Origin: Minisyncoccota bacterium
GTDB taxonomy: Bacteria > Patescibacteriota > Minisyncoccia > Phycocordibacterales > DSPV01
Assembly (NCBI GenBank): GCA_041662545.1
Contig: JBAZSH010000004.1
Coordinates: forward strand, 1,803-65,802
Reading direction: 5' to 3'
DNA: 64,000 nt
This document shows, in pieces, positions 19,592 to 32,625 of the stretch; the stretch's first letter is position 1, and every line of letters starts with the position of its first letter. The translations under genes were made by a program, and so were the position numbers. The notes under the pieces are model-generated. The model searched no databases. It was not told the origin of the DNA and saw only the letters and a program-made list of their open reading frames with translations.

Positions 19592-19680
19592 AAACAACCA
19601 GATACACGATATCATAAAAACCGAGTTTTTCCACTTTGCCCTTTACTTACAAAATAGTATACTATGTAAATAATAAGTGT

Positions 19681-20214
19681 ATGTTTAGCGACCCGGAAAA
19701 AAATTTGGACCAGTTTGACTTGCAGAAGGGAATGCGGGTAGCGGACTTCGGTGCCGGCAGCGGTTTTTATGTGCTCACCGCCGCTAAATTGGTAGGCGAC
19801 AAAGGCAAGGTCTATGCGGTAGATATTCAAAAAGATTTGTTAGTCCGTTTAAAAAAAGAAGCGGCGGTAAAAAAAATCCTAAACATTGAAATTGTCTGGG
19901 GCGATCTGGAAAAAGTAGGTGGAGCAAAACTAGAAGATAATTCGGTAGATCGGGTAATTGTCTCAAATCTGTTGTTTCAAATTAATGGCAAAGAAAATCT
20001 GGCAAAAGAAGCTATGCGAATTTTAAAACCCGGGGGAAAAATTTTAGCAATTGATTGGATTGAATCTTTCGGCAACCTCGGCCCGCGAACAGAAAATGTT
20101 TTCGGCAAAGAAACAGCGCGAACGCTTTTTGAAAATGCCGGCTTCTCTTTGGAAAAAACAATTGATGCCGGCGCCCATCATTACGGTTTAATATTTTCTA
20201 AAAAGAAAAAATGA
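19681..20214 (+). CDS. class I SAM-dependent methyltransferase
   Basis: VADFGAGSGFY is SAM-binding motif I, and ILKPGGKILAI is also present. Confidence 0.7.
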   Translation: MFSDPEKNLDQFDLQKGMRVADFGAGSGFYVLTAAKLVGDKGKVYAVDIQKDLLVRLKKEAAVKKILNIEIVWGDLEKVGGAKLEDNSVDRVIVSNLLFQINGKENLAKEAMRILKPGGKILAIDWIESFGNLGPRTENVFGKETARTLFENAGFSLEKTIDAGAHHYGLIFSKKKK

Positions 20215-21470
20215 AAAATGTTTCAATCTTCCAACTAGTCTTAATCGCTGTCTTTGTAGTAGCGGCCATTGGTGGTCTGATTTTATTCGCCAGTTATAAA
20301 GGCTCTTCGTCTGGGTTAAATGTCCCCACGGCCGAAGTTTGGGGCGTGATTCCAACCACACAATTTTCCGCCATCAAAACGGCCTTTGAAAAAGACAAAA
20401 CTTTCAAAATAAATTACACGGAAAAATCATCGACGGCCTTTTACGGCGACTTGATAGAAGCGCTGGCGGCTGGCATTGGCCCCGACCTGATTATTATTCC
20501 TGAAAATCTTTTGTCTAAACTAAACTCCAAAATTTTTGAAATTCCTTTTGCTAGTATGTCCGAAAGAACTTTCCGCGACACCTTCTTGGATGAAGGTGGC
20601 TTATTCGTAACTCCCACCGGCATTACCGCTTTGCCGTTCAGTGTTGACCCACTGATTATGTATTGGAATCGCGACACTTTCGCTTCAGCCGGCCTCGCTA
20701 AACCACCGGCCGTTTGGGATGAATTCATTCAATTGGCGCAAGTTTTAACCAACAAAGATTCAAACGGTAATGTTTTCCGTAGCGCCGTCGCTTTGGGTGA
20801 ATTTGATAATATTAATAATGCCAAAGAAATTCTGTCGGCCTTATTGATCCAAATTGGAGCGCCACCTTTTGTCGCCATAAATGATAGTGCCAGCGCCAAT
20901 GCGGTTACCACTCTAAATTTTTACACTCAATTCTCTAATCCACTCGGCTTAACTTATTCTTGGAATAAAAGTTTGCCTAATTCACGCGATATGTTTTTGG
21001 CCGGTGATTTGGCGATTTATTTCGGTTTTGCTTCGGAATTGGCTAATTTAAGAACAAAAAACCCCAATCTTTATTTTGATGTTGCTGTCTTTCCCCAACC
21101 AAAAAGTGCCAAGAATTCGGTTACTTTCGGCAAACTTTACGGAGTAGCAGTTCTAAAATCTGCTCGTGATATTGCCAATTCCGTTCGTATTGCTGGACTT
21201 TTAACTTCGGCGACAGCAGGTGGAGCAATGTATCAAGCCGGCGGATTACCGCCGGTACGCCGTGATTTGCTTTCAGTAAAACCAACCGATGCCTACGGCG
21301 CGCTGTTCTACAATGCGGCGCTGATGTCGCGTGGCTGGCTTGACCCTGATTACTATTCCACCTCGTCAGCTTTCAAAGAAATGGTTGAGTCGGTCTCGTC
21401 CGGCAAAGCCCGCCCCAGCGAAGCGGTAACGAGAATGGAGCAGGAGATAGGAAAACTTATAACAAAATAA
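20211..21470 (+). CDS. membrane-anchored extracellular solute-binding-protein-like (SBP_bac_1-like) protein. It is an orphan, with no adjacent permease genes.
   Basis: It has an N-terminal TM helix. ALPFSVDPLIMYWNRDTFASAGLAKPPAVWDEF resembles the family-1 SBP motif. Confidence 0.45.
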   Translation: MKNVSIFQLVLIAVFVVAAIGGLILFASYKGSSSGLNVPTAEVWGVIPTTQFSAIKTAFEKDKTFKINYTEKSSTAFYGDLIEALAAGIGPDLIIIPENLLSKLNSKIFEIPFASMSERTFRDTFLDEGGLFVTPTGITALPFSVDPLIMYWNRDTFASAGLAKPPAVWDEFIQLAQVLTNKDSNGNVFRSAVALGEFDNINNAKEILSALLIQIGAPPFVAINDSASANAVTTLNFYTQFSNPLGLTYSWNKSLPNSRDMFLAGDLAIYFGFASELANLRTKNPNLYFDVAVFPQPKSAKNSVTFGKLYGVAVLKSARDIANSVRIAGLLTSATAGGAMYQAGGLPPVRRDLLSVKPTDAYGALFYNAALMSRGWLDPDYYSTSSAFKEMVESVSSGKARPSEAVTRMEQEIGKLITK

Positions 21471-24092
21471 ATGCGTTTTTCACTTTCCATAATTATTTTC
21501 ACTTTATTATTTATTGCCATCGCGGCGCCGTTTTCGGCCCAAGCGGTTTGGACACCAGGCGATGCAATTGTGCCCTGTGATGGGAGTGTCACACATCCTT
21601 GTGATTTCAATGCATTAATAGTTCTCACCAACAACATTATTGACTTTCTTATTTATCTTTCAGTACTGATTGCCGTGGCAATGTTCGCTTATGCCGGTTT
21701 TCTTTACCTCACTTCTGTTGGCGACACCGGCAAAATGAAAGAAGCTCACACCATTTTTACCAATGCCGCTTACGGCTTCATCTTCGTCCTCGCCGCTTGG
21801 CTAATTGTGACTTTGATTTTGAGTGCTTTGGCCTCAAGGGCGTTTTGCGAATCAGCGGCGGCTAAAATTATTATGAGTCAGGAACAGATAGATAAATGTC
21901 GGCAGGGGAGTTCACCCGATGATACTATCCCTGTTGTTCCTCCGATAGTTCCTCCAATGGTGCCACCAGTCGTACCACCCATTGTTCCACCGGGCGCATC
22001 TGTCGCCCCCATCATTTCTTCTGTTTCTGCACCCGCATCATCAATTACTACTTCTAATGCAATTATTTCTTGGACAACCAACGAAGCGTCAAATTCAATT
22101 GTTGATTATGGTTTGACCACTTCATATGGCTCACAAACTTTATTGCCTAGTGATTCAGTAACTTCTCATTATGTTTCTCTCGTTGGATTATCACCGAACA
22201 CCACTTATCATTACCGCGTTAGTTCAAGAGGCGCGACCAGTAACAATCCGATAAATTCCCCCGATTACACTTTTACCACACAACCAGCCGCCATTGTAAT
22301 TGATGAGCCACCACCATCTCGTCCACCGCCCCCACCCCCAAACACCCCTCCTATTTTCGCCTCTATAGAGGCGAAAACTGTTAATGAAAATGCCCCCTTA
22401 CTCTTTACTCTTGTAGCTACTGATGTCAATGAAGACACACTGACATATTCAGCATCTGGTATTCCAACTGGCGCTTCGTTTAATACTTCAAATAAAACTT
22501 TTTCTTGGACACCAAGCTATTCACAATCGGGAAATTACACAGTTACATTTTCGGTCAGTGATGGAAAAGATGGCACGGATTCTAAAGCGGTAGATATTGC
22601 GGTTACAAACACACTCGCACCCTGCGAGGGTATCAATCCCGACTTCGCGACTCACGCCGGTGAGCAGATTGATAGTAGAATCAGACTAGCTTCTCCGTCA
22701 ACCGGGCTTGATCTTTTTTCAGATTTTTATTCAGCCGTTGGAATGACAGGCCGTAATTTTGTTGCCTTGGCTAATAAACCTGAATCGCTGACATGGAATA
22801 ACAATTCCTGGACAAAGAAGGGGACAACGCTTGATTTTACCGGAGTAGCCGCCTGGAATGACTGGGGTGGCTCATCTAATCCCACTTATCAAGGCGCGGC
22901 CACTCTTATTACTCCCAAACATTTCGTAACCGCTACCCACATTAAATTACCAGTTGGAGCAAAAGTAACATTTATTAAGCCCAATGGCGAAACTGTTACC
23001 AGAACAGTCACTAATTTAGTAGATATACCCAACAGCGATGTGACCGTGGAAATGCTTGACAGTGCCGTTGATTCTTCCATAAGACCTTTTCAAGTTATGG
23101 ACATTGCAACATTTTGGGGGCTCTTTGATGGTATTCCAGGATCATCGGGAGTGCCAATCGCCCTGTTCCATCAACTGCGTAAAACTTCTGTACACGCCTT
23201 GGGTGTAAACTATGAAAACCCGTATGGGTTTATTCCACATAATCCGAGTTCTTCTGGGACAAGGGCAAGTTTTTATTATTCTATAGAAAATGGCGATTCT
23301 GGCCAACCGGGATTTTTAATCGTTGAAGATGAGCCAGTACTTCTTTTTGTAAATTTTGATAGGGTGAAGGGGTCAAATATTGGCTCTCGCATCACACAAA
23401 TCAATCAGGCCATAAATTCTTTGGGAAGCGGTGGTTATAGCGCCGAATTATATGCTCCGTCTTCTTGTTTTACAAAACATCCAATTACTCCCGCTATCAC
23501 TTCTATTTATACAAATATTGGTTCCATCAGTTGTCTTCAAAATGCGCCGACCTGTTCTATGGAAATATTGGGCGTCGGTTTTACGCCTCAAAATAACACG
23601 GTAAGAGTCGGAACATTAAATATCGGTAATTTCTCTTCATATAATAGTGGAACCGCGATTAAGGATATTGATATTCCAACTGATATCGTTGCCGGCGCTT
23701 ACGATGTCGTGGTTTCCAATAGTAAAGGTACATCAAATGCCAAACCATTCATAATGCTGTCTTACTCCTCAATGCCGTTTGTCGCATCGGTCTCTCCTTC
23801 TTCCGGCCCAATGGGTTCAACCATCACTCTAATAGGCGCAAACTTTTCAGAGAAACACACAAACAATATCCGATTCTCGCCTACTACCGGTTTTGAGCCC
23901 GAAATTTCTATTCAATCTAAAAATGTAACTCAAAACGGGACACGGATTACCATTACTCTTCCAAACGATCCAAACGGCGATTACCCAGTCGGTAGAATCT
24001 TTAAGATCTGGGTTGATAACAATGAATTCGGCTACAGCGACGAAAATCCGGACTACGAAAGCAATCCGGCGACATTTACGGTGGCACAATAA
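21471..24092 (+). CDS. giant secreted multidomain protein: a VirB2/TrbC-like pilin N-terminus, then proline-rich linkers, FN3, an Ig-like (PIG) domain, a trypsin-like domain and IPT/TIG domains
   Basis: The N-terminal ~120 aa are homologous to the small pilin-like paralogs at 26355, 26974 and 27455. TATH...GDSGQPGF is an S1-protease-like His/Ser motif. WTTNEASNSIVDYGLTTSYGS is an FN3 motif. Confidence 0.6.
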   Translation: MRFSLSIIIFTLLFIAIAAPFSAQAVWTPGDAIVPCDGSVTHPCDFNALIVLTNNIIDFLIYLSVLIAVAMFAYAGFLYLTSVGDTGKMKEAHTIFTNAAYGFIFVLAAWLIVTLILSALASRAFCESAAAKIIMSQEQIDKCRQGSSPDDTIPVVPPIVPPMVPPVVPPIVPPGASVAPIISSVSAPASSITTSNAIISWTTNEASNSIVDYGLTTSYGSQTLLPSDSVTSHYVSLVGLSPNTTYHYRVSSRGATSNNPINSPDYTFTTQPAAIVIDEPPPSRPPPPPPNTPPIFASIEAKTVNENAPLLFTLVATDVNEDTLTYSASGIPTGASFNTSNKTFSWTPSYSQSGNYTVTFSVSDGKDGTDSKAVDIAVTNTLAPCEGINPDFATHAGEQIDSRIRLASPSTGLDLFSDFYSAVGMTGRNFVALANKPESLTWNNNSWTKKGTTLDFTGVAAWNDWGGSSNPTYQGAATLITPKHFVTATHIKLPVGAKVTFIKPNGETVTRTVTNLVDIPNSDVTVEMLDSAVDSSIRPFQVMDIATFWGLFDGIPGSSGVPIALFHQLRKTSVHALGVNYENPYGFIPHNPSSSGTRASFYYSIENGDSGQPGFLIVEDEPVLLFVNFDRVKGSNIGSRITQINQAINSLGSGGYSAELYAPSSCFTKHPITPAITSIYTNIGSISCLQNAPTCSMEILGVGFTPQNNTVRVGTLNIGNFSSYNSGTAIKDIDIPTDIVAGAYDVVVSNSKGTSNAKPFIMLSYSSMPFVASVSPSSGPMGSTITLIGANFSEKHTNNIRFSPTTGFEPEISIQSKNVTQNGTRITITLPNDPNGDYPVGRIFKIWVDNNEFGYSDENPDYESNPATFTVAQ

Positions 24093-24160
24093 ATATTCTT
24101 ACACTTATTATTCACTATAGGAAATTATAAGTGTATAGGGAAATCTATAATCTAGAAATA

Positions 24161-24175
24161 CCAGGTCTGACCTGG
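24161..24175. repeat. intergenic REP-like singlet CCAGGTCTGACCTGG
   Basis: It has the same GGTCTGACC core. It lies downstream of the 873-aa gene. Confidence 0.5.
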
Positions 24176-24204
24176 TAAATCAAAAAATAAATAAAAATTG
24201 GCAA

Positions 24205-24233
24205 GAAAAAACCCCCGGTGTTGCCATCGGGGG
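24205..24233 (-). terminator. intrinsic terminator for the minus-strand SPFH operon
   Basis: On the minus strand the stem CCCCCG...CGGGGG is followed by a T-run. Confidence 0.6.
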
Positions 24234-24263
24234 TGTGTTTGCGACTTTATGTCGCGAAGAACT

Positions 24264-25022
24264 TTAGTCAACAGCACGAAGCCAGATTGACACCTCCTCG
24301 CCATTTGGATACCGCTCGAACCCTTGAAAAAAGGTTGGATTGGTATCAGTTGACGGCACAGGACTCAGCCACCAATTTCCTTTCTGGAACGGTAGAGACA
24401 ATTGTTCGAAAGTTCCGTCACTGTAGTAATAAACCGTCACTTGGCTCTGTGGCAAATAAACCTCAAAGTCAATGCGCGCTTTATCATGAAATGAACCACC
24501 ATAGTAGGTAATTTTTGCCCCAAATAGATTGTTCCTTTGTGTTGGGTCCAATCCTTTCACCTTATCGGACTTCAAACAACCGTATCTCCACTTCTTATCT
24601 GTCACTGATTTGGTAATAGAGACCCCAGTTGCTTTCGGCAAAATCATTTCCTTACCTGCCGACACCATTGAAACCAAAAGGCAGGTGAGTGTTAGAAGTA
24701 ATGCTACTACCCCGACTATTTGTGGTTTGGCATATTTCAACAGGATTACACTAACAACGAATCCAAGTTGAATGAACCAGAACCCGTTCGTCTTTAGCCA
24801 GTGTCCGAAAAATTCCGGAAAGCACTGCCAGATGAGAATCAAGCAAAACACTTGTCCTCCGATGGCGAGTAGCCATCCGAGGTTTCCAGTAGTATTTTTA
24901 AACCACTGTCCGGCAGTGCCATTATTGAGTCCCGGTACTTTGATTTTTGTCATCACGCCACCCATGGTTTTAAAAGCGACGATGACAATGGCCACAGCCA
25001 GTCCAATTAGTAGGATTTTCAT
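24264..25022 (-). CDS. hypothetical polytopic membrane protein, co-oriented with and 1 nt after the SPFH gene
   Basis: It has four predicted TM helices followed by a soluble C-terminal domain. It may be an NfeD-like partner. Confidence 0.45.
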   Translation of the reverse strand: MKILLIGLAVAIVIVAFKTMGGVMTKIKVPGLNNGTAGQWFKNTTGNLGWLLAIGGQVFCLILIWQCFPEFFGHWLKTNGFWFIQLGFVVSVILLKYAKPQIVGVVALLLTLTCLLVSMVSAGKEMILPKATGVSITKSVTDKKWRYGCLKSDKVKGLDPTQRNNLFGAKITYYGGSFHDKARIDFEVYLPQSQVTVYYYSDGTFEQLSLPFQKGNWWLSPVPSTDTNPTFFQGFERYPNGEEVSIWLRAVD

Positions 25023-26210
25023 TTAGTTTCCTTTCGGTGTGTTGGGTGTGGAAATTCCAACTTTTTTGGCCATTTCCATGATACCGCCAATAGAACTGTA
25101 GAGCTCACTGCCCGGTATGATGCTGTAATTGGCACTTTGCAGGGCCGTTTGTATCACTTTGAGATGAAGCGCCAGTTGACCGGCTTTTGTGCCAGTTACT
25201 TTGCGCAAAGCGTCAATACCTGCCGCTTCTGCTTTCAACAGTGCCTCTCTTGCAGCAGCGTCGCCTAAACCCTTGTCTGTTAGGTATGATTTCTCGCCAG
25301 CTCCTTCAAGTTCTCGAGCTTGTCGTGCCCCTTCCGCTGTTGTGATGGTCTGTTGTTTTTCAAGTTTTTTGGCAATAACATTTCTCAACTGTTCATTGAC
25401 TGTTTTGCCAAAATCAACATCCACCAATTGGACATTGATGACATTGACACCCCAGCTTTCTTCTGGTTCAGAATTAGGTTTTTCTCCCACCAGAATTTCA
25501 ACAGAATCCTTAAGCGAATTGTTGATTTTGCCTCGGTCGCGGATGATTAATGGGGGAGTTCTCTTTGCAAACTCAATTCCCGTTACCGTTTCGGTTGTGT
25601 CGCGCATTTGTTTAATGGCGGAATCCAATGTTCCGATATTCGTTAGAAAACGCAGATATGAACCTTTCCTTATCTGGAATCTGACGATAATACTAACTTC
25701 CGGTGTCATCCGGTTGTTTATTGGTTCATCTTTGAATGCCGTCATGTCAGCTTTGAATTCATTGTCAACTGCCTCTGGTGAAGCGGTCGGGACTCGAATT
25801 GGTTGAACCATTCCCGATCTAGTGTTTTGGTCAGTGCTTGATTTATCTACTTCTTCCGGTTCACCTGGAAATTGCCTCTGTATGACTAAGCGTGTTTCTT
25901 TTTTGAGTTCACAGATAGCAAATGGCACGAGAACCAACCCTGACTCGACTTCACATCTTGGGTCACCGAACAAGAGTATCCCGCCCAATTCTGTTGGTCC
26001 GACAATCTTGATGCTGAGTGCAGCGTATAATAACTGCACCGCGATGATTATGTAGCCTGCATTCAATTCATTACGAGGGTCGATAACAATGGCGATTCCG
26101 GCCGCGATGATCGTTGCGAGGTTAGCAATGAGAAATGTCCAGAACATTTTATTTTTCCATTCTTTTTGGGTTTTCTCATTGAACTTGCCAGCGTTTGTTA
26201 CTCCATTCAT
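25023..26210 (-). CDS. SPFH / band-7 (stomatin/prohibitin/HflKC-like) membrane protein
   Basis: It has an N-terminal TM helix. The SPFH core has a coiled-coil alanine-rich stretch TAEGARQARELEGAGEK. Confidence 0.7.
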   Translation of the reverse strand: MNGVTNAGKFNEKTQKEWKNKMFWTFLIANLATIIAAGIAIVIDPRNELNAGYIIIAVQLLYAALSIKIVGPTELGGILLFGDPRCEVESGLVLVPFAICELKKETRLVIQRQFPGEPEEVDKSSTDQNTRSGMVQPIRVPTASPEAVDNEFKADMTAFKDEPINNRMTPEVSIIVRFQIRKGSYLRFLTNIGTLDSAIKQMRDTTETVTGIEFAKRTPPLIIRDRGKINNSLKDSVEILVGEKPNSEPEESWGVNVINVQLVDVDFGKTVNEQLRNVIAKKLEKQQTITTAEGARQARELEGAGEKSYLTDKGLGDAAAREALLKAEAAGIDALRKVTGTKAGQLALHLKVIQTALQSANYSIIPGSELYSSIGGIMEMAKKVGISTPNTPKGN

Positions 26211-26354
26211 AGTTTTCCTTTTGTTCCTGTTGTTTCAGTTGTTATTTAATTGTCAACGCCATGAAAATGGCTGACAAAATCTGCCCAAGATATTAGCATA
26301 ATATTTATTAGCTGTCAAATTTGCGGTAAAAACTGGCGGTGGTAAAATATTGGT

Positions 26355-26756
26355 ATGAAGTTTTTGAAAATAAAAGGGACAACAATTTTACTTTTCTTAT
26401 TTGCTATTGTATTAATGCCAGTTTTTTCTTTTGCGGTTGATGATGTAACTATCTCCGCCACAATCGACAACCCCCTGTCAGCAGGTTCGCTATTCTGTTT
26501 TCTGAAAGATATTTTGGATGTGTTTTTGACGGTTGGAATAATTATCGCTGTTTTGTTTATGGTCTATGCCGGCTTTTTGTTCGTGACGGCGCGAGGGGCC
26601 GAAGCTCAACTCACCACTGCCAAAAAAGCATTTCTCGGTGCCGTCATCGGCACCGCTATTATTATGGGAGTGTGGGTGATTGCCCAAGCGATTGTCGGCA
26701 CTATCAATGCTATTCGCGATCCAGGTGCGGCCATCAGCATATCAACTTGTCCGTAA
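26355..26756 (+). CDS. VirB2/TrbC-like pilin-family small membrane protein (paralog 1)
   Basis: It has a signal peptide and two TM helices (IIAVLFMVYAGFLFVT...AFLGAVIGTAIIMGVWVIAQ). It is homologous to the N-terminus of the 21471 protein. Confidence 0.55.
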   Translation: MKFLKIKGTTILLFLFAIVLMPVFSFAVDDVTISATIDNPLSAGSLFCFLKDILDVFLTVGIIIAVLFMVYAGFLFVTARGAEAQLTTAKKAFLGAVIGTAIIMGVWVIAQAIVGTINAIRDPGAAISISTCP

Positions 26757-26781
26757 TATAGAAAAGAATTAAAATATAATT

Positions 26782-26964
26782 ATGAAAAAAATCAGAAAAG
26801 AAAAAAAGACCGCCAGAGACCATTTTGTAATTTTGATTAGAGAAATTCGTCTACTGCGAGAAATATTGAGGAATAACACCAAAATGATTCGTTCAGTAAT
26901 AATCCCTTTGCTTGCCAAACGCAACAAAGAAATTGATTTTCTAAAAACCCAAGTCGGTGTTTAA
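26782..26964 (+). CDS. small basic hypothetical protein
   Basis: It is a 60-aa ORF between pilin paralogs. Coding status is uncertain. Confidence 0.2.
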   Translation: MKKIRKEKKTARDHFVILIREIRLLREILRNNTKMIRSVIIPLLAKRNKEIDFLKTQVGV

Positions 26965-26973
26965 TTAAAAATA

Positions 26974-27345
26974 ATGAACCTCACCAAAAACCAAAAACTC
27001 CAAAAACTTTTCTCCATCGTCGCCCTCGCCGTCGTTCTGCTTTTGCCAATAATGTCTTATGCCGCCACTACTGATTTTAAGACATTGGTAAGTGGAATTA
27101 CTACTGGAATTCTTGCGCCACTTGTCCCTCTTATAATCGGTTTAGCAGTAATAGTATTCCTTTGGGGGGTATTAAAATTTATTACCGCCGCGGGAGACGA
27201 AAAGAAGAGAAAAGAAGGGAAAGATTTTATAATCTGGGGGTTGGTAGGTATAACGATAATGTTTTCAATTTGGGGTCTAGTAAAAATATTGACTGGTACG
27301 CTTAACTTGGACAATACCATACCAACGATTCCTCAGTTATCTTAA
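26974..27345 (+). CDS. VirB2/TrbC-like pilin-family small membrane protein (paralog 2)
   Basis: GLAVIVFLWGVLKFITAAGDEKKRKEGKDFIIWGLVGI. It is a paralog of the 27455 protein. Confidence 0.55.
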   Translation: MNLTKNQKLQKLFSIVALAVVLLLPIMSYAATTDFKTLVSGITTGILAPLVPLIIGLAVIVFLWGVLKFITAAGDEKKRKEGKDFIIWGLVGITIMFSIWGLVKILTGTLNLDNTIPTIPQLS

Positions 27346-27454
27346 GTTTTCCACAGGTAGCTTGTTGTATGGTGTTTTATCTGGTAACCTTAAATGGTGT
27401 TAAAAACCAAAGGTCGTTGAAGGTTTTTTATTAATTTTACTAAAATTATAATAA

Positions 27455-27808
27455 ATGAAATCAAAACTTATTAAAATTACTTCGCTCGCAGCTTTGGCCT
27501 TACCACTTGTCGCATCGGCAGCGATTAGTACAGTTTGGTTTACTGACGCAATAACTAGTATTCAAAATGTTCTGGATGCATTGGTACCTTTACTAATTGG
27601 TTTGGCGGTAATTGTATTTCTTTGGGGTGTGGTCAAATTCGTTACTGCCGCCGGAGACGAAGAAAAACGGAAAGAGGGCCGTGGCTTTATAATTTGGGGA
27701 TTAGTTGGTATTGCTATAATGATTGCCCTTTGGAGTCTTGTGGGTTTATTAACCGGTTGGACAGGTACTGGAGTCGTTGCACCCCCCACACCTCCTTTAC
27801 TTCCTTAG
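27455..27808 (+). CDS. VirB2/TrbC-like pilin-family small membrane protein (paralog 3)
   Basis: GLAVIVFLWGVVKFVTAAGDEEKRKEGRGFIIWGLVGI. It is about 80% identical to paralog 2 in the core. Confidence 0.55.
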   Translation: MKSKLIKITSLAALALPLVASAAISTVWFTDAITSIQNVLDALVPLLIGLAVIVFLWGVVKFVTAAGDEEKRKEGRGFIIWGLVGIAIMIALWSLVGLLTGWTGTGVVAPPTPPLLP

Positions 27809-27840
27809 TTTTTTCCCAAACCGACTCTGAAATTCAACTT

Positions 27841-27875
27841 CCGCCCCGACTTTCGTCGGGGCGGTTTGGTTTTGT
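27841..27875 (+). terminator. intrinsic terminator
   Basis: CCGCCCCGAC-tttc-GTCGGGGCGG is followed by TTTGGTTTTG. Confidence 0.7.
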
Positions 27876-27879
27876 CAAC

Positions 27880-28194
27880 GGCGAGGTTGACAGCTCAATT
27901 GATGGCGCTATGATTATTCGAGATGACTGAACCGTGAAGATGTTCTTTGCGGAAGCACCTAAAACCAAACAGGAACCAAATATGTCAGCAAAACAACTGC
28001 CCATACCCAACGGGGGTTTACCCACCGCAACAATGATTCTTGGGCGAGACCCGAGGGGACCAGTTCCAACTTGCCGAGTAGTCAGGCGATCCGACGCGAT
28101 GTCAACTTGGGAAGAGTGGCGACAAGTTCCCATTTTGGAACAAAGCAACTCAAGGCCTCGGAGAACAAAGCCAATCGGCTGACAGTTTTCGCAA
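27880..28194 (+). ncRNA. candidate structured non-coding RNA. It is a GC-rich untranslated region between two terminators, and its identity is unknown.
   Basis: About 300 nt at roughly 50% GC sit in a genome of roughly 40% GC. No ORF in the region is credible. It contains local hairpins, for example GTCAACggcgagGTTGAC, and ends at the terminator at 28195. Confidence 0.25.
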
Positions 28195-28220
28195 GTCCCG
28201 CCCTGGCGGGACTTTTTTTA
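28195..28220 (+). terminator. intrinsic terminator
   Basis: GTCCCGCC-ctg-GCGGGAC is followed by TTTTTTTA. Confidence 0.7.
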
Positions 28221-28367
28221 TTCCCCCAATGCGATATAATTACGGAAACAGCGGAAAGAACAAATTTTAAAAATTCTAGGTGGGGGCGTGCCAAATTGTG
28301 ATGTCTGCGAACAATTTGGGGTTAAGGAATTTTTAAAATTTAGTTCTTGGAGCTGTTACCCAAATCA

Positions 28368-30005
28368 ATGGAAGACGATAATAAAATAACCTATTTCGCC
28401 GAAACTGACGCTCGAGGCAAACGAACGCCTTTTGGCATAAAAAATAAAGACCGCTCCCGCCACACTTATGTCATCGGAAAAACCGGCATGGGCAAATCCA
28501 CATTGCTGGAAAATATGGCAATTCAAGATATTAGAAACGGTGAAGGTTTAGCTTTCATTGACCCGCACGGCAAAAGCGCCGAAATGCTTTTGGATTATGT
28601 GCCAGCAGAAAGAACCAAAGATGTTCTCTATATCGCACCCTTTGATTTGGATTTCCCAATTTCTTTCAATGTAATGGAAGATGTCGGCGTAGACAGCAGA
28701 CATTTGGTGGTCTCTGGTTTAATGAGCGCTTTCAAAAAAATCTGGGTGGACGCCTGGAGCGCGCGGATGGAATACATTTTAACCAATACCTTGCTGGCCC
28801 TTTTAGAATATCCCGACGCCACTTTATTATCAGTCAATCGAGTTTTGGCTGATAAAGAATATCGCAAAAAAGTAGTGGAAAATATTACCGATCCGTCGGT
28901 AAAAGCTTTTTGGACCGAAGAATTCGCTAAATACACTGACCGCTTTGCCCAAGAAGCCACTCCGGCCATTCAAAACAAAGTCGGTCAGTTCACTTCTAAT
29001 CCACTCATCAGAAATATTATCGGCCAGCCGAAATCGTCTTTTGATTTGCGGAAAATAATGGACGAGCGAAAAATTTTAATCGTCAATCTTTCAAAAGGCC
29101 GGGTGGGCGAAGTCAATGCCGATTTACTGGGTAGTATGCTAATTACAAAAATTTATCTGGCGGCAATGTCACGCGCTGATTTGTCAGGCAGTAATTTGCG
29201 AAAATTGCCGCACTTCAATTTATATGTTGACGAATTCCAATCATTTGCCAATGAAAGTTTTGCTAACATTTTATCGGAAGCCAGAAAATACAAACTCAAT
29301 CTATTTTTGGCCCATCAATATATTGAACAAATGTCGGAAGAGGTGAGGGCGGCGGTCTTCGGCAATGTCGGAACAATGGTTTGCTTCCGGGTAGGCGCCT
29401 ACGACGCTGAAGTATTGGAAAAAGAATTCGCACCAGCTTTTACCGCTGAAGATTTGGTCAGTTTAGGTTTTACTCAAATTTATTTGAAATTAATGATTAA
29501 TGGCGTCAGCTCGCCACCGTTTTCCGCAACCACTCTAGCGCCACTGGAACAACCGTTAATTTCCTACAAAAACGACATTGTTACTAACTCGCGCAAAACT
29601 TACGCCAAATCACGGGTAGAAGTGGAAAACGCTATTCGCCTTTGGAGTCAGCCAATCACTCCACTCATTAAACCGAAAATTGCGCCAGTAGTAACACCAG
29701 CATCGCCATCCCGCCTCGTCCCGCCCGACCGGCGGGCAGGCGGCGGGCAAACACCAAAATCACCTCCAAAACCGGCACCGGTTATCCAAAAACCCGCTTT
29801 CCATAAACCTTTTCACTTAAATGAATTGCAGAAAACCCCACCAGTTATCAATACCGACAAAACTCAAAATCCAAAAAATGTTTCTGACCTACGCAAAGCG
29901 CTAAAAGTAGTTTTGGAAAAGAAAGAAGAAAAAGTCGAGAAAAAAGTAGATGAAGTGCCAGAGGAAGTTTTGAAAAAAACCTTGGGCTTGGATGAGAAAA
30001 AGTAA
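28368..30005 (+). CDS. type IV secretion coupling-protein-like ATPase (VirD4/TraG/TrwB family-like) with a Pro/Lys-rich C-terminal tail
   Basis: It has a Walker A motif VIGKTGMGKST, a DPHGK motif (as in DPKG of T4CPs) and a Walker B motif NLYVDEFQSF. An alternative TTG start lies at 28347. Confidence 0.5.
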   Translation: MEDDNKITYFAETDARGKRTPFGIKNKDRSRHTYVIGKTGMGKSTLLENMAIQDIRNGEGLAFIDPHGKSAEMLLDYVPAERTKDVLYIAPFDLDFPISFNVMEDVGVDSRHLVVSGLMSAFKKIWVDAWSARMEYILTNTLLALLEYPDATLLSVNRVLADKEYRKKVVENITDPSVKAFWTEEFAKYTDRFAQEATPAIQNKVGQFTSNPLIRNIIGQPKSSFDLRKIMDERKILIVNLSKGRVGEVNADLLGSMLITKIYLAAMSRADLSGSNLRKLPHFNLYVDEFQSFANESFANILSEARKYKLNLFLAHQYIEQMSEEVRAAVFGNVGTMVCFRVGAYDAEVLEKEFAPAFTAEDLVSLGFTQIYLKLMINGVSSPPFSATTLAPLEQPLISYKNDIVTNSRKTYAKSRVEVENAIRLWSQPITPLIKPKIAPVVTPASPSRLVPPDRRAGGGQTPKSPPKPAPVIQKPAFHKPFHLNELQKTPPVINTDKTQNPKNVSDLRKALKVVLEKKEEKVEKKVDEVPEEVLKKTLGLDEKK

Positions 30006-31491
30006 CACAATAAAATTTTTGCTGATAATATTTTTTTTGGTACTGATGCCACGATTGGTTTTGCCTGCCCGCCATTGCCAAGCTCAGGCTTTGGCAGGCG
30101 GGGCAGTAGTGGAAATTAGTGAGATTATGTATGATCCAAAAGACACTGACACCAATGCTGGCGGGGAATGGATTGAAATTCACAACACTGATTCTCAAAT
30201 TATTGACTTAACTCAATGGATTTTTTTTGATAATGATACCAATCACAAAATCACTGCCGACAATAGTATCGAAGTGCCAGCTGGTGGCTACGCTGTGATT
30301 TCTAGCAATCTGGAATATTTCAAAAGTTTTTTCGCCAATTATTCCGGGCTTTTGTTTAAGACCTCGTTTTCATTAAACGATGGGGAACCTCTGGCGATAA
30401 AAAGTAATAAGGATGCGGCACCTTCAGATTCAGTAACTTATTCTTCCGACTGGGGGGCCAAAAATGACGGCAATTCTTTGCAAAAAATTAGTGGTCAATG
30501 GAAAGTCGGAGCACCGACACCTGGTGTTGCCAATGTTGCCAGTTCAAACACCTCCAACGACAATCCGCCGACCGATACGCCAACCGGAGAACAAAGCTCC
30601 AACACTAGCCAAACCTCTTCAACCGGCGCCGGCGAAAAACCACCGGAAATGAAAATAGAAATCGTTGCCAATAAAACGGTGGTGGTTGGCGCAGACGCCT
30701 TGTTAGCTGGCAAAGCCTTGGGCGCCGATGGCAAGCCCTTGGATAATGTTCGTTTTCTTTGGAATTTTGGCGATGGCGAAACAAGAGAAGGACAAAATGT
30801 TTTGCATCGTTTTCGTTTCCCCAGCGAATATATTGTTACTTTGGATATCGCCTACGGCAAATGGAGCTCAACGGCTCGCGCTACAATCACAGCCGTCAAA
30901 TCACCATTAACCATATCGCGGATAGAAGAAGGTCCAGCTGGTTTTGTAGAAATTGCCAATGGCGGCAACACTGAATTAGATTTGTTCGGTTGGTATTTAA
31001 AATCTGGAAATACTTCTTTTTTAATTCCAAAAAACACCATCATCGGCGGGGGCAAAAAAATAATTTTTCCCAGTGAAGTGACGAAACTTGATGCTGTCAA
31101 TGTTCTACTTTTATACCCCAATGGAGTAACGGCCGTTGGTTATGAAAAACCCGCTCCAGATCCTGCTCCGCCTCCAGAAAAAATTATTGAAACGAAAATA
31201 ATAACACCGCCTGCGAAACCGGTGAGTTTCCCCGAGTCAGACTCGGGAAATTCGCAGGTCAAACCTGCGAAAACAGAAATAAAAGAAGAAATAGCGGCGG
31301 TTTACAAAGCGGTAGAGGGTGCAGAAATAACAAAGATTGCAGAAGCGACACCAGAAAATAGCGGCGGTTTGGGAATTTGGCTTCTTGCCTTAGGTGGCTT
31401 AATTGTGTTATCACTGGGGGCACTTGCTTTCACCAAACATAAGCCGAGCTTGATTCCAAACGAGACAGAAGAATACAAAATTATTGAATAA
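29992..31491 (+). CDS. cell-surface protein with two lamin-tail domains (LTD), a PKD-like domain and a C-terminal membrane anchor
   Basis: EISEIMYDPKDTD..GEWIEIHN...GGYAVI...NDGEPLAIK is the LTD signature, and it is repeated as FVEIANGGNTELDLFGWYL. FLWNFGDGETREGQNVLHRF is PKD-like. It has a C-terminal TM helix. Confidence 0.7.
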   Translation: MRKSNTIKFLLIIFFLVLMPRLVLPARHCQAQALAGGAVVEISEIMYDPKDTDTNAGGEWIEIHNTDSQIIDLTQWIFFDNDTNHKITADNSIEVPAGGYAVISSNLEYFKSFFANYSGLLFKTSFSLNDGEPLAIKSNKDAAPSDSVTYSSDWGAKNDGNSLQKISGQWKVGAPTPGVANVASSNTSNDNPPTDTPTGEQSSNTSQTSSTGAGEKPPEMKIEIVANKTVVVGADALLAGKALGADGKPLDNVRFLWNFGDGETREGQNVLHRFRFPSEYIVTLDIAYGKWSSTARATITAVKSPLTISRIEEGPAGFVEIANGGNTELDLFGWYLKSGNTSFLIPKNTIIGGGKKIIFPSEVTKLDAVNVLLLYPNGVTAVGYEKPAPDPAPPPEKIIETKIITPPAKPVSFPESDSGNSQVKPAKTEIKEEIAAVYKAVEGAEITKIAEATPENSGGLGIWLLALGGLIVLSLGALAFTKHKPSLIPNETEEYKIIE

Positions 31492-31494
31492 AAA

Positions 31495-32625
31495 ATGGCA
31501 AAAAAAATCCTAATTTTCTCTGTCGCTTATCGGCCATTTATCGGCGGAGCGGAAGTGGCGATAGAAGAAATCACCAAACGATTGGCGAGTGATTTTTCTT
31601 TTGACTTAATCACGGTTAATTTGGACGGCCGCCAAAAACGCGAGGAAAATATTGGTAATGTTAATATCTTCAGAGTCGGCTCCAGCGCTCTGGGTAAATT
31701 TTTGTTTCCGTTTAGGGCGCTTTTGGCGGCAGGCAAACTTCACCGACAAAATCATTACGACAGCACTTGGGCAATTATGGCCAATTATGCCGGCTTTGCC
31801 GCTTTATTTTTCAAAATTTTTCATCCAGCTGTGCCTTTTGTTCTAACTTTACAAGAAGGCGACCCGATTCCAGAAATCAGGCGCAAGGTTTGGTTCGTTT
31901 GGCCGATTTTTAAAATGATTTTCCAACGCGCCGATAAGGTAACGGCAATTTCCAATTATCTGGCACAATGGGGTAAAACAATGGGCGCGAAAAATGTGGA
32001 AGTAATACCGAACGGGGTAGATATAGAGAAGTTTAATCCCGATTTTGCGACGCAAAATCGAGGAAATAAAATCCTGATAACTACCTCGCGGCTGGTGAAA
32101 AAGAATGGGGTGGGAGATATTATTGAGGCCTTAAAACTTTTGCCAGAAAATTTAAAACTGATAATTGTCGGTTCTGGCGAATTGGAGAAAAGTTTAAAGT
32201 TTAAAGTCAAAAGTCTAAAGTTGGAAGAGAGAGTAAGATTTCTAGGTTTTGTAGAACCTGAAAAAATTCCCGAATATCTCTGGACTTCTGATATTTTTAT
32301 CCGCCCTTCACTATCCGAGGGTTTGGGTAATTCGTTCATTGAAGCGATGACAGCTGGTTTACCGATTATTGGCACATCAGTTGGCGGTATTCCGGATTTT
32401 CTTTTTCCTCCCGAAAGGTCAGACCTTAAATCTGGAGAAAGGTCTGACCTTATTCCCACAGGGCTCTTCTGCGAACCAAACAATCCCCAAAGCATTGCCG
32501 AAAAAGTGAAATTACTTTTGGCTGATAATTCACTCCGGCAAAAAATTATCGCCAATGGCCAAAAATTGGTTGCTGAAAAATATGATTGGAATCTTATCGC
32601 CAACCAAATGCGCCAGGTGTTGTAA
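31495..32625 (+). CDS. family-4 glycosyltransferase (GT4). It carries an in-frame REP-like insertion encoding PERSDLKSGERSDLIP.
   Basis: EGLGNSFIEAMTAGLPIIGTSVGGIPDF is the EX7E motif region. Confidence 0.75.
   Translation: MAKKILIFSVAYRPFIGGAEVAIEEITKRLASDFSFDLITVNLDGRQKREENIGNVNIFRVGSSALGKFLFPFRALLAAGKLHRQNHYDSTWAIMANYAGFAALFFKIFHPAVPFVLTLQEGDPIPEIRRKVWFVWPIFKMIFQRADKVTAISNYLAQWGKTMGAKNVEVIPNGVDIEKFNPDFATQNRGNKILITTSRLVKKNGVGDIIEALKLLPENLKLIIVGSGELEKSLKFKVKSLKLEERVRFLGFVEPEKIPEYLWTSDIFIRPSLSEGLGNSFIEAMTAGLPIIGTSVGGIPDFLFPPERSDLKSGERSDLIPTGLFCEPNNPQSIAEKVKLLLADNSLRQKIIANGQKLVAEKYDWNLIANQMRQVL
32415..32451. repeat. in-frame REP-like inverted doublet in the GT4 gene
   Basis: AAGGTCAGACCTT-aaatctggaga-AAGGTCTGACCTT. 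Confidence 0.85.

Follow-up and report, generated by a model that had tools for sequence, protein, structure and literature searches.

Do the small pilin-like genes, the 873-aa protein and the VirD4-like ATPase encoded side by side in a Paceibacterota (CPR/Paceibacteria) genome form a single secretion apparatus? The stretch of DNA analysed here (64 kb, hereafter the window) had been read in a first-pass annotation as carrying one T4SS-like locus that unites the pilins and the ATPase, and the ORF list returns the three small genes, the 873-aa ORF and the ATPase ORF exactly at the coordinates then claimed. Their union into one locus did not hold: we conclude that the locus, a known pilin array that contains a new fusion variant, does not amount to a T4SS complete in itself. 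The array and its immediate surroundings are the following.

20211..21470, + strand: membrane-anchored solute-binding protein (SBP), SBP_bac_1 (Pfam 68.3 bits)
21471..24092, + strand: fusion protein of 873 aa, with an extracellular multidomain cassette appended to a PF18895 pilin module (ORF, Pfam domains)
24264..25022, - strand: 252-aa polytopic membrane protein, convergent with the fusion gene (TM scan)
25023..26210, - strand: SPFH/Band_7 membrane-scaffold protein (Band_7 34.7 bits)
26355..26756, + strand: pilin paralog 1, 133 aa, divergent (PF18895 26.1 bits, cut-off 26.6)
26974..27345, + strand: pilin paralog 2, 123 aa (PF18895 38.6 bits)
27455..27808, + strand: pilin paralog 3, 117 aa (PF18895 46.3 bits; NCBI name 'pilin')
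27841..27864, + strand: intrinsic terminator closing the pilin array (10-bp stem, 9 GC pairs, then a T-run)
27887..28214, + strand: separate small transcription unit of promoter-like site, 66-aa ORF and terminator (sequence signals)
27887-27914, + strand: its promoter-like site (11/12 consensus positions)
27982-28182, + strand: its 66-aa ORF, with the conserved peptide motif ILGRDxxxPxPxCRVV
28193-28214, + strand: its terminator (sequence)

The small proteins are supported as VirB2-like T4SS-type pilins by profile matches. PF18895 (T4SS_pilin, Pfam) recognizes all four pilin modules, the N-terminus of the 873-aa protein included, at 26.1-46.3 bits, above or at the gathering score, and the family HMMs built here recover them with E values from 1e-30 to 1e-49; paralog 1, whose DNA is ~81% identical to pilins of two related lineages (L092 and L001), is found at E 1e-41. 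The NCBIfam model NF045849 (Mycoplasma-ICE pilin-like) matches the window pilins (41.7 bits for paralog 2, cut-off 40) as well as 68/73 members of a family that counts 8,692 representatives at 50% identity. The proposed VirB2/TrbC-like character was therefore borne out through PF18895 and NF045849, but not through TrbC/VirB2 itself (PF04956, Pfam), which scored under its cut-off (18.4 bits for paralog 2). The core motif quoted for all copies, AVIVFLWGV.KF.TAAGDE.KRKEG..FIIWGLVGI, is common to the 26974 and 27455 proteins (55% identical to each other), but the 26355 protein and the N-terminus of the 873-aa protein diverge, being only 20-25% identical to these two. The topology had been described correctly: in each of the four modules two hydrophobic helices come after a signal-peptide-like helix (TM scan), with a Sec-type signal peptide carrying an AxA cleavage motif and a short K/R-rich loop joining the hydrophobic helices. 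An AlphaFold model of paralog 3 (pLDDT 75.5) likewise comprises a signal helix and a helical hairpin (H26-64, H69-103). Because of the K/R-rich loop and the positive-inside rule, we directly infer that both termini of the mature pilin would lie outside the cell.

Gene order places the array in a conserved methyltransferase-SBP-pilin(s) module: the order is kept in six lineages (window, L001-4, L005-8, L089, L090-91 and L092) that differ in their outer flanks, and in the window the SBP stop codon is immediately followed by the first pilin gene, which starts at 21471. The 252-aa membrane protein, for which Pfam gave no match, and the SPFH gene form a conserved pair, with homologues of the membrane protein at the same position in L001-8 and a Band_7 gene at the same place in L001-4 and L090-91. 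Promoter and peptide motif of the small unit are conserved in L001, with synonymous changes, and L092 has a similar motif, ILGRRWGAPAIP, that lacks CRVV. The wider context is chromosomal housekeeping (aminoacyl-tRNA synthetases, MreB, ribosomal proteins).

Could the PF18895 modules be two-helix membrane anchors or partners of the co-transcribed SBP rather than polymerising pilins, and the 873-aa protein an ordinary membrane-anchored enzyme or adhesin of the cell surface that has nothing to do with any T4SS? The conserved order just described, with SBP and pilin genes directly abutting, speaks for this possibility, as does the lack of T4SS machinery in the window (see below). Of the 150 closest representatives of the family, 29 (about 19%) exceed 200 aa, with 9 C-terminal extensions, 14 N-terminal extensions and 3 sets of tandem modules, the added domains including PKD, TIG, FN3, SH3 and Peptidase_M15; such bulky extensions, or 5-6 tandem modules, would be hard to pack in a pilus. 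Neither sequence nor structure links the modules to solved VirB2/TraA pilins, the PDB profile search being empty and Foldseek returning non-specific helical hairpins only. However, the family is homologous to a conjugation pilin-like protein (see below), several divergent tandem paralogs are typical of described pilin arrays, and such genes lie near virB4 in 1,135/1,948 Patescibacteria assemblies and those in the T4SS cluster of S. epibionticum are essential (PMC12102498; PMC10633639). We therefore consider the anchor explanation unlikely, and treat the modules as pilins in what follows.

The ATPase, in turn, opens a different group of genes.

28368..30005, + strand: coupling-protein-family ATPase without membrane domain (Pfam, NCBIfam, PDB profile)
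29992-31491, + strand: LTD+PKD surface protein (LTD 74 bits, PKD_4 36.7 bits), overlapping the ATPase stop by 14 nt
31495-32625, + strand: GT4 glycosyltransferase, conserved downstream partner of the ATPase

The ATPase ORF opens at TTG 28347 (28347-30005, 552 aa), with ATG 28368 as the likely true start. Its Walker A (GKTGMGKS, aa 44-51), DPHGK (72-76) and Walker B (VDEF, 294-297) motifs and its disordered, variable, Pro/Lys-rich C-terminal tail confirm the first-pass description. DUF87 (HerA central domain, 26.7 bits), TrwB_AAD_bind, T4SS-DNA_transf and TraG-D_C each match barely above cut-off; among NCBIfam models those of TraD/VirD4 are best (SXT_TraD, 54 bits), and a PDB profile search gives TrwB as best match (E 4.5e-4), returns DotL and yields no HerA or FtsK chain at E <= 1, FtsK_SpoIIIE scoring just 12.6 bits. 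In PHROGs the protein matches phrog_5156 of SPO1-like phages (E 1e-55), and homologues at ~30% identity adjoin relaxase and T4SS genes on pLS20-like plasmids. These profile comparisons support a closer relationship to the coupling proteins (TrwB/VirD4-like) than to HerA/FtsK, as had been proposed. Orthologues 58-90% identical occur in 80 other genomes, and among 84 ATPase loci GT4 lies downstream in 58 and LTD in 30, while the upstream neighbours elsewhere are DUF4015, RsmI-like and Mur-ligase genes.

The first-pass reading, in which the pilins, the pilin-anchored protein and the ATPase make up one contact-dependent secretion or adhesion apparatus, with the ATPase energising the pilus or coupling substrates to it, draws on the adjacency of the genes on the same strand in the window, in L001-3 and in L092, and on the family of the ATPase. 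Against it, the ATPase has no TM helix (TM scan), unlike coupling proteins, which possess an N-terminal membrane domain; some T4CPs of Gram-positive plasmids, such as TraJ of pIP501, are reported to do without this domain too, which favours the single apparatus. We nonetheless judge it quite improbable, for several reasons: (i), two terminators, a promoter and an unrelated small gene intervene between array and ATPase, which has its own conserved -10 element. (ii), no pilin ORF was found at E <= 1 within the fetched flanks of any of the 80 other ATPase loci, 61 of which have at least 3 kb of upstream sequence. (iii), the genes conserved around the ATPase are others: LTD and GT4 follow it, and cell-wall genes precede it. 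(iv), the lineages that share the adjacency are close kin. (v), neither VirB4 nor VirB6 was found in the window and, (vi), in a published survey of 5,713 T4CP genes from Patescibacteria only 148 were close to virB4, and in S. epibionticum the T4CP was non-essential (PMC12102498). Judging from these signals and neighbourhoods, the ATPase shares with the LTD protein and glycosyltransferases another unit, which is transcribed on its own and conserved far more widely, and the ATPase probably does not serve these pilins as a dedicated partner. A lineage-specific functional link may exist, because in the window, L001-3 and L092, three related lineages, the array immediately precedes the ATPase gene, but the adjacency may also be merely inherited, because these lineages are closely related (ATPases 88-93% identical; 93% to the window's in L092, 88% in L001-4).

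A Pfam scan of 42 other window ORFs, which included every ORF of at least 190 aa, found no VirB4, VirB3, VirB6, VirB8 or TrsD in the 64 kb and no other T4SS component, in agreement with the annotation as regards VirB4, B6 and B8. A small component, e.g. VirB3-like, may be encoded among about 15 further ORFs of 70-160 aa. Since VirB4, VirB3, VirB6 and TrsD were not found in the window, pilus assembly is assumed.

The novelty of the locus is the 873-aa protein, recorded identically in NCBI (MFA6273175.1), JGI and Logan.

21471..21899, + strand: pilin module, aa 1-143 (PF18895 38.9 bits)
21927..21998, + strand: Pro-rich linker 1, IPVVPPIVPPMVPPVVPPIVPPGA, aa 153-176 (read from sequence)
22035..22280, + strand: FN3-like domain, aa 189-270 (Pur_ac_phosph_N 35.8 bits, cut-off 30; fn3 24.3 bits)
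aa 279-295, + strand: Pro-rich linker 2, preceding the He_PIG/Big_9 domain (read from sequence)
22341..22610, + strand: He_PIG/Big_9 Ig-like domain, aa 291-380 (He_PIG 54.6 bits, Big_9 45.6 bits)
22605..23465, + strand: rare domain with a chymotrypsin-like motif set (motifs; candidate fold)
22938-22940, + strand: candidate triad His, H490, in TATH (motif)
23037-23039, + strand: candidate triad Asp, D523, in PNSDVTV (motif)
23298-23300, + strand: candidate triad Ser, S610, in GDSGQPGF (motif)
23538..24089, + strand: two IPT/TIG-like beta-sandwich domains, aa ~690-765 and 769-873 (Pfam; sequence pattern)
21899..24097, + strand: in-frame insertion of ~2.2 kb relative to close relatives (blastn)
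24100..24135, no strand: 36-nt hairpin/palindrome TACACTTAT-N18-ATAAGTGTA, ancestral 3' flank of the pilin gene

The protein opens with a complete pilin module (~143 residues, where ~120 had been claimed): a signal peptide ending ...AQA before VW, an N-terminal Cys pair (C36/C44), TM1, the cytoplasmic loop TSVGDTGKMKEAH, TM2 and a C-terminal Cys pair (C126/C143). The Pro-rich linkers, FN3 and Ig-like domains seen at first pass are all there, the FN3-like and He_PIG/Big_9 domains exceeding Pfam cut-offs; of the two IPT domains, Pfam recognizes the second (TIG PF01833, 27.0 bits on aa 769-840, cut-off 20.9) and the first is assigned from its sequence pattern. The trypsin-like domain stood in part: TATH (H490) and GDSGQ (S610) are present, but the fold did not find support, the AlphaFold model having a pLDDT of 38 and protease profiles giving no significant match (hhalign probabilities 2-9%). 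The weak top PDB matches are PA-clan proteases aligned at the triad motifs (E 0.6-2), and in the only five family members found among 5.8 billion proteins H and D are invariant (5/5) and GDSGQPG is kept in 4/5. On its motifs, the domain is a candidate chymotrypsin-like protease.

DNA alignments with relatives show that the first, SBP-linked pilin gene recently gained an in-frame cassette of ~2.2 kb at its 3' end, which supplants the end of the ancestral gene, from its final few codons through the stop. Homology to L001 and L005 ends at 21898 (blastn) and resumes at 24100 with the 36-nt element, which is 100% identical in L001-4 whereas the adjoining coding DNA is only 72-79% identical; the element directly follows the stop of a standalone pilin in L001-4 and that of the 873-aa gene here. 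At the syntenic position, after the solute-binding-protein gene, L001-4 and L092 have a standalone pilin of 147-153 aa (153 aa in L092), and standalone pilins of 145-175 aa are 62-72% identical to the full module and end just past ...QI.KC. The distal ~495 residues of the cassette, IPT/TIG region included, are 68% identical to aa 23-515 of P0003, a secreted surface protein of another Paceibacterota genome whose C-terminus is a peptidoglycan-binding domain, and were drawn from the same pool as that protein; the cassette also shares 72% DNA identity with L093.

It might be objected that the fusion is an assembly or sequencing artefact, a chimeric join or lost stop uniting a standalone pilin with an unrelated surface-protein gene, since the source is a metagenome-assembled genome, the pilin stands alone in all examined relatives and the 873-aa protein occurs on only one contig. 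This is very unlikely: the junction falls exactly at the natural pilin C-terminus, beyond which a Pro-rich linker and 730 more codons follow in frame, the frame being open throughout 2.6 kb; both flanks are syntenic with relatives, down to the ancestral 3' element after the new stop, so that a chimeric join would require two precise in-frame breakpoints; and the independently assembled Logan set contains the same protein. The fused topology is moreover biologically coherent because the pilin C-terminus faces outward. Finally, a reading of the small proteins as phage holins or as some other two-TM family, and of the ATPase as a HerA/FtsK-type translocase or terminase-like phage protein, which the two TMs of the former and the DUF87 and phrog_5156 matches of the latter might suggest, is scarcely credible and disfavoured, given that no holin or other two-TM family in Pfam or PHROGs matches the four modules, that PF18895 is their best Pfam match and TrwB the best match of the ATPase, and that the surroundings are chromosomal.

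We thus favour, with moderate confidence, a Patescibacteria pilin array in which a stalk was recently fused to the outward C-terminus of one pilin, the ATPase forming a separate unit. The two-helix hairpin of the 873-aa protein could serve as membrane anchor for the stalk or, alternatively, insert it as a rare adhesin- or enzyme-bearing subunit of a VirB2-type filament made up of the other pilins; a VirB4-type machine with its genes in another part of the genome would assemble this filament. Spanning the cell wall, the Pro-rich rods would present the Ig, protease-like and IPT domains at a host-cell surface, where these may act in binding or proteolysis. To our knowledge, a ~720-aa appendage on a VirB2-like subunit is without experimental precedent, and it may be incompatible with polymerisation.

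Compared with known systems, the array itself is of a familiar kind, chromosomal and made of VirB2-like pilins of the Patescibacteria type: PF18895 is a VirB2-like pilin family whose arrays in Patescibacteria have already been described (Wang 2023; Quiñonero-Coronel 2025), and coupling-protein genes are mostly distant from virB4 in these bacteria (PMC12102498; PMC10633639; PMC12857230). Beyond them, the Mycoplasma ICE conjugation systems possess a pilin-like protein homologous to this family. What the window adds to this known array is a fusion variant, the 873-aa protein.

All the open reading frames listed in the first-pass annotation were found where it had placed them, and the VirB2/TrbC-pilin-like topology that it had seen in the small genes at 26355, 26974 and 27455 agrees with both the family matches and the layout of their products. 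PF18895 (T4SS_pilin) matches the protein from 27455 with 46.3 bits, that from 26974 with 38.6 bits and the N-terminus of the 873-aa protein (gene 21471-24092, plus strand) with 38.9 bits, the gathering score being 26.6. The protein from 26355 falls marginally short of this score (26.1 bits) and matches a purpose-built family HMM at E 1e-41, all four pilin modules reaching E 1e-30 to 1e-49 against the family HMMs built in this analysis. The layout looked for was that of the PF18895 type, a signal peptide, two helices and a basic loop within about 100-150 aa. In each of the three small proteins and in residues 1-143 of the 873-aa protein, the only part of the latter that fits, hydropathy scans revealed a signal-peptide-like helix with a terminal AxA motif, and the scans and alignments placed two hydrophobic helices behind it with a short K/R-rich loop between them. 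An AlphaFold model of a PF18895-family pilin is a helical hairpin (pLDDT 75.5), and the 117-aa protein is named "pilin" by NCBI. The conserved core quoted at first is common to 26974 and 27455, which are 55% identical; 26355 and the 873-aa N-terminus are only 20-25% identical to these two. The NCBIfam model NF045849 (Mycoplasma ICE pilin-like protein) matches 68 of 73 PF18895 family members at E <= 1e-3; 26974 exceeds its cut-off of 40 with 41.7 bits, the other window pilins staying below this equivalog cut-off. TrbC/VirB2 itself (PF04956), the comparison initially proposed, gives a sub-threshold match to 26974 only (18.4 bits, gathering score 27.9). A PDB profile search with the 73 family members recovered no solved pilin, and Foldseek of the hairpin model against the PDB returned no significant match and no pilin among the top 50; a helical hairpin is too generic for such searches. 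Taken together, the PF18895, NF045849 and PF04956 results argue that the small proteins are members of the Patescibacteria "VirB2-like" pilin family and not demonstrable members of PF04956. A holin or another two-TM family had been considered as the alternative; none matches better in Pfam or PHROGs, and the context is one of chromosomal housekeeping genes with no lysis cassette.

The 873-aa protein opens with the pilin module, as the first-pass annotation had it, and continues into two Pro-rich linkers, an FN3-like domain (aa 189-270) and a He_PIG/Big_9 Ig domain (aa 291-380), both of which had been anticipated and were found by Pfam, and then a domain of about 290 aa with no Pfam match. Where IPT domains had been proposed, one TIG domain of the C-terminal region scores above cut-off (aa 769-840, 27.0 bits) and the repeat preceding it is recognised by sequence pattern only. 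The N-terminal module shows 62-72% identity with standalone pilins of 145-175 aa, and these end a few residues past the last conserved cysteine (...QI.KC), the point at which the Pro-rich linker starts in the 873-aa protein. In related genomes, the syntenic position directly after the solute-binding protein (SBP) gene is occupied by a 147-aa pilin (loci L001-4) or a 153-aa pilin (locus L092); the ATPases of these loci are 88% and 93% identical to the window ATPase, yet a bare pilin stands where the window has the fusion. DNA homology to L001 and to the related locus L005 ends at 21898. A 36-nt hairpin element (TACACTTAT-N18-ATAAGTGTA, 24100-24135) directly follows the 873-aa stop codon and is found 100% identical in L001-L004 (10477-10512 in L001), there after the stop codon of the standalone pilin, in a setting where neighbouring coding DNA is only 72-79% identical. 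The break of homology at 21898 and the presence of the same element after the new stop codon indicate that the gene gained about 2.2 kb in frame, and the 873-aa gene is thus best understood, from these alignments, as a recent in-frame fusion. As to its role, a conserved terminator, an operator and a recombination site are all conceivable; L001 also carries a second copy of the element (16363-16401, 97% identity) after an unrelated gene. An assembly artefact that joined a pilin gene to a foreign cassette is a very improbable source of this architecture, since a chimera would need two precise in-frame joins, and the identical 873-aa protein is on record from NCBI (MFA6273175.1, from a Candidatus Paceibacterota (Parcubacteria, CPR) MAG), JGI and Logan.

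A relative of the acquired module can be named. The last ~495 residues of the 873-aa protein are 68% identical (72% for the DNA) to the region directly behind the signal peptide of P0003, an 896-aa Paceibacterota surface protein whose gene immediately precedes a complete operon for a type IV pilus (PilM, PilB, response regulator, PilT, PilC and prepilin; locus L093, 8001-18651). P0003 and a second Paceibacterota surface protein, P0006, have the domain bearing the H/D/S motifs and two IPT-like domains in common with the 873-aa protein, the identities over ~495 residues being 68% and 51-56%. In both, the module directly follows the signal peptide; both possess a PG_binding_1 domain at the C-terminus together with a hydrophobic tail, and in place of these the 873-aa protein has its N-terminal pilin hairpin. 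Recent as it appears and with an identifiable donor module, the fusion would illustrate cassette shuffling among surface anchors in nature.

The ~290-aa domain had been described as trypsin-like. The motif set underlying this description stands: H490 (ATLITP.HFVTATH) and D523 (PNSDVTV) are invariant in 5 of 5 homologues, the family counting five members among 5.8 billion proteins, and the S610 motif, GDSGQPGF in the 873-aa protein, reads GDSGQPG in 4 of the 5. His, Asp and Ser thus follow each other in the clan PA order, with spacings of 33 (H490-D523) and 87 residues (D523-S610) that resemble those of bacterial S1 proteases. At the level of folds the description is less secure. Pfam returned no match for the domain, and a PDB profile search gave four weak matches at E 0.6-2, three of them to the PA clan (two 3C-like proteases and TMPRSS11A), which align at the His motif and, for the 3C-like proteases, also at the nucleophile motif. 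With hhalign, the His and Asp motifs align with those of V8 protease and SGPB at probabilities of 9% and 2%, TATH and PNSDV being paired with TAGH and PNNDY of SGPB; these alignments are a motif-level hint only. The AlphaFold2 model from the 5-sequence alignment is unusable (pLDDT 38). On balance, we regard a PA-clan serine protease fold as fairly likely for this putative protease domain.

The pilins have the features needed for Sec export, signal-peptide cleavage and insertion as a hairpin with both termini outside. Because the inter-helix loop is basic, both termini of the mature hairpin should face outward, and the appended domains should therefore be extracellular, a placement that would suit their domain types; the fusion is thus predicted to put a stalk of ~730 aa outside the cell. 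The combination of a pilin with a large extension is not unique to the window protein. The PF18895 family has 8,692 representatives at 50% identity, and of the 150 closest, 29 exceed 200 aa; nine of these have a C-terminal extension, 14 an N-terminal one, and three (P0246, P0338 and P0343) consist of 5-6 pilin modules in tandem within a single polypeptide. PKD, TIG, FN3, SH3 and Peptidase_M15 are among the added domains. A pilin of this family may bear a large enzyme- or adhesin-like stalk on its outward C-terminus, and extension of some kind occurs in about one fifth of the close representatives. This matters for the question whether every PF18895 "pilin" polymerises, and for the ways in which domains that bind or degrade a host might be displayed by CPR cells.

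The stalk might either be simply anchored in the membrane or be a rare subunit of a VirB2-type filament, whose assembly would then fall to a VirB4 machine with genes elsewhere in the genome. Under both alternatives, the Pro-rich rods would reach across the wall, leaving the Ig, IPT and protease-like domains to engage a host surface. It is tempting to go one step further and to speculate, tentatively and against what we would ourselves expect, that the PF18895 hairpin is a general, exchangeable surface-display anchor of CPR bacteria and not a filament subunit only. Ig, TIG and FN3 domains and peptidases may be the cassettes swapped onto its outward-facing termini, and such swaps could give rise to minor pilins with an adhesin or an enzyme attached, displayed on a T4SS-type pilus where it meets the host. 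If the hairpin were such an anchor, the window would capture a swap very soon after the event, a relative whose ATPase is 93% identical keeping the bare pilin and the donor module being found also on a peptidoglycan-binding surface protein beside a type IV pilus operon.

The genes upstream of the pilins form a recurrent arrangement. A methyltransferase gene, a gene for a membrane-anchored SBP_bac_1 protein and one or more pilin genes follow each other in this order in six lineages (window 19636-21470, and the related loci L001-L008 and L089-L092) with differing outer flanks, namely IleRS-MreB, RecJ or GyrA. The SBP stop codon abuts the pilin start, seven consecutive pilin genes are present in L089, and a convergent pair of membrane-protein and SPFH genes usually comes after the pilins. 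No ABC permease gene was found near the module. From this linkage, one may suppose that the pilin subfamily functions together with an orphan solute-binding protein.

The second element of the region is the ATPase encoded at 28368-30005 (plus strand), first annotated as VirD4/TraG-like on account of its Walker A (GKTGMGKS), DPHGK and Walker B (VDEF) motifs, which proved invariant in the orthologues, and described as having a Pro/Lys-rich tail, which is C-terminal and variable. Three coupling-protein models of Pfam match it, all just above cut-off: TrwB_AAD_bind (25.0 bits, cut-off 20.5), T4SS-DNA_transf (23.0, cut-off 20.1) and TraG-D_C (23.3, cut-off 22). DUF87 scores comparably, also just above its cut-off (26.7 bits). 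Among NCBIfam models, those of TraD/VirD4 rank first, yet far below their cut-offs (SXT_TraD, the best, reaches 54.2 bits against 366). A single-sequence phmmer search of the PDB gave no match, and a profile of 37 orthologues reached TrwB as its best match (E 4.5e-4), followed by DotL (E 0.33). The DUF87 protein of pLS20-like plasmids, whose gene adjoins those for a relaxase, TcpE and a VirB4-like ATPase, is one of the homologues with ~30% identity; 338 of the 425 plasmid records with a homologue are typed as non-mobilizable. The Pfam coupling-protein models, the TrwB and DotL matches and the pLS20-like homologues together place the ATPase, as far as profiles can tell, in the coupling-protein branch, in agreement with its initial annotation. 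The rival assignment to HerA/FtsK is disfavoured by a score of only 12.6 bits against FtsK_SpoIIIE and by a PDB profile search in which no HerA/FtsK chain appeared at E <= 1. The ATPase also matches phrog_5156, with members in SPO1-like Bacillus phages, at E 1e-55 over the C-terminal half of the 824-position profile; a phage origin of the region as a whole is at odds with its chromosomal housekeeping context and with pilins that match no PHROG holin. The hydropathy scan detected no hydrophobic segment that could form an N-terminal transmembrane domain, the open reading frame cannot extend upstream, and the orthologues, 58-90% identical across Taylor-, Zambryski-, Yonath-, Nomura- and Wolfebacteria, begin at an equivalent point.

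The first-pass annotation had combined pilins and ATPase into one secretion or adhesion apparatus, a proposal that we do not favour. Between the array and the ATPase gene lie the following features:

27841-27864: strong terminator, which closes the pilin array
27887-28214: small transcription unit with a promoter-like site (11 of 12 consensus positions), a 66-aa open reading frame (27982-28182) and a second terminator

The ATPase gene has its own conserved TGCGATATAAT element downstream of this second terminator. The motif ILGRDxxxPxPxCRVV of the 66-aa open reading frame is conserved in L001 with synonymous codon changes, a related motif, ILGRRWGAPAIP, being present in L092; the region has no Pfam or Rfam match. 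A structured RNA was considered for the gap at 27865-28346 and abandoned: Rfam gave sub-threshold noise only, and the conserved stretch carries synonymous substitutions and is therefore read as a small protein gene. On the downstream side, the ATPase is accompanied by GT4 glycosyltransferases in 58 of 84 loci and by an LTD/PKD surface protein in 30 of 84; in the window, the LTD/PKD gene (29992-31491) overlaps the ATPase stop codon by 14 nt and encodes a product with a signal peptide and a C-terminal TM anchor. Upstream, among 80 genome loci, the neighbours are DUF4015 (53 loci), RsmI-like methylase (34) and Mur-ligase genes (33), and a pilin open reading frame at E <= 1 was found in none of the 80 (61 of which have at least 3 kb of upstream sequence). 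Adjacency of pilins and ATPase is confined to close relatives (the window, L001-3 and L092) and is best read as an inherited neighbourhood. The ATPase does not appear to be a dedicated partner of the window pilins, because it has no membrane domain, is unusually conserved, keeps its own neighbours, has no pilins at the 80 loci and is separated from the array by terminators and promoters. ATPase, LTD protein and GT4 glycosyltransferase would instead constitute a separate envelope-related module.

As the first-pass annotation had remarked of VirB4, VirB6 and VirB8-11, the remainder of a T4SS was not found in the window: among the open reading frames scanned with Pfam across the 64 kb there is no VirB4, VirB3/PrgI, VirB6/PrgH, VirB8/PrgL or TrsD, and no relaxase gene was detected there. 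The window spans nearly all of a 66,330-bp contig, on which the neighbours are chromosomal housekeeping genes (DnaB, RecR, CysRS, pentose-phosphate enzymes, IleRS, MreB, PheST, LepA, GluRS, RF and S2) together with five tRNAs, and the pilin/fusion region has no plasmid-, ICE- or phage-like surroundings. Some other genes of the window deserve a mention in their own right. The IleRS (13900-17379, 1,159 aa) has a His_Phos_1 domain (aa 496-663) inserted in its catalytic domain, as does its L001 orthologue. A 1,344-aa protein (59869-63903, minus strand) carries, besides a Peptidase_S74 (endosialidase chaperone) and a bacterial surface Ig-like domain, an intein that a NYN nuclease domain interrupts. 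At 57306-58049 (minus strand) lies an IS200-like Y1 transposase gene, and the product of the open reading frame at 10144-10725 (plus strand) has an N-terminal helix like that of type IV pilins or pseudopilins (T2SSG, E 0.046), the prepilin cleavage motif being apparently absent at the called start.

How far does this region depart from known systems? VirB2-like pilin arrays of 2-11 divergent genes each are on record from Patescibacteria (441 arrays in 383 assemblies), about 40% of the pilin-bearing assemblies lack pilin-virB4 proximity, and of 5,713 VirD4-like genes only 148 are near virB4, for which exaptation was proposed (survey of Quiñonero-Coronel et al. 2025, PMC12102498). In Paceibacteria, virB4 is mostly close to dnaA/dnaN (PMC12102498; PMC10633639; PMC12857230). 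The window array and its orphan coupling-protein-like ATPase are thus of known kinds; what is new is the recently formed pilin-stalk fusion, and neither the fusion nor the SBP linkage constitutes a categorically new system. The finding that a coupling-protein-like ATPase widespread in Paceibacteria is tied genomically to envelope glycan genes and not to pilins supports the published suspicion of exaptation. Its layout (Walker A - DPxG - all-alpha region - Walker B - Q) is that of TrwB (R388), VirD4, TraD, DotL and the pLS20-like DUF87 protein. The window ATPase differs in that it has no N-terminal transmembrane domain, the part that anchors the T4CP hexamer in the membrane, is conserved to an unusual degree across candidate orders and is found among LTD, glycosyltransferase and cell-wall genes, not beside T4SS or relaxase genes.

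For the pilins, the closest comparison is with the Patescibacteria arrays themselves, one of which forms an essential part of the T4SS cluster in Southlakia epibionticum (SEML1_0006-0019; Wang et al. 2023, PMC10633639). Few envelope features have been shown to be indispensable for the epibiotic life of a cultivated patescibacterium, and T4SS-type pilins are among them. The arrays of S. epibionticum and of the survey are, like the window array, of the PF18895 family and chromosomal. The window array differs in that it adjoins no virB4 or other T4SS gene within 64 kb, comes after a methyltransferase-SBP pair and has one member with a 730-aa extracellular extension; the literature that we found on Patescibacteria T4SS pilin arrays does not mention large pilin fusions or extensions. 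Canonical VirB2/TrbC/TraA pilins (F-, T- and pKM101-type) resemble the window pilins in their small size, in the signal peptide, in the two hydrophobic helices with a short basic loop between them and in having both termini outside the membrane; sequence similarity between the two groups is only sub-threshold. They belong to diderm systems with VirB5 at the pilus tip, and we know of no natural fusion of a large domain to their C-terminus. The pilin-like conjugal transfer protein of the Mycoplasma ICE Mbov_0395 family (NF045849) is homologous to the window pilins over the two-helix core and shares with them a monoderm, MPF-FATA-type setting; it lies within a mobile element beside a VirB4-type ATPase (judged from NCBIfam model names), whereas the window pilins are chromosomal and surrounded by no ICE genes. 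This homology bears on where Patescibacteria obtained their VirB2-like pilins: the CPR pilins could derive from a monoderm system of the MPF-FATA type, in which case co-option from diderm T4SSs would not have to be assumed.
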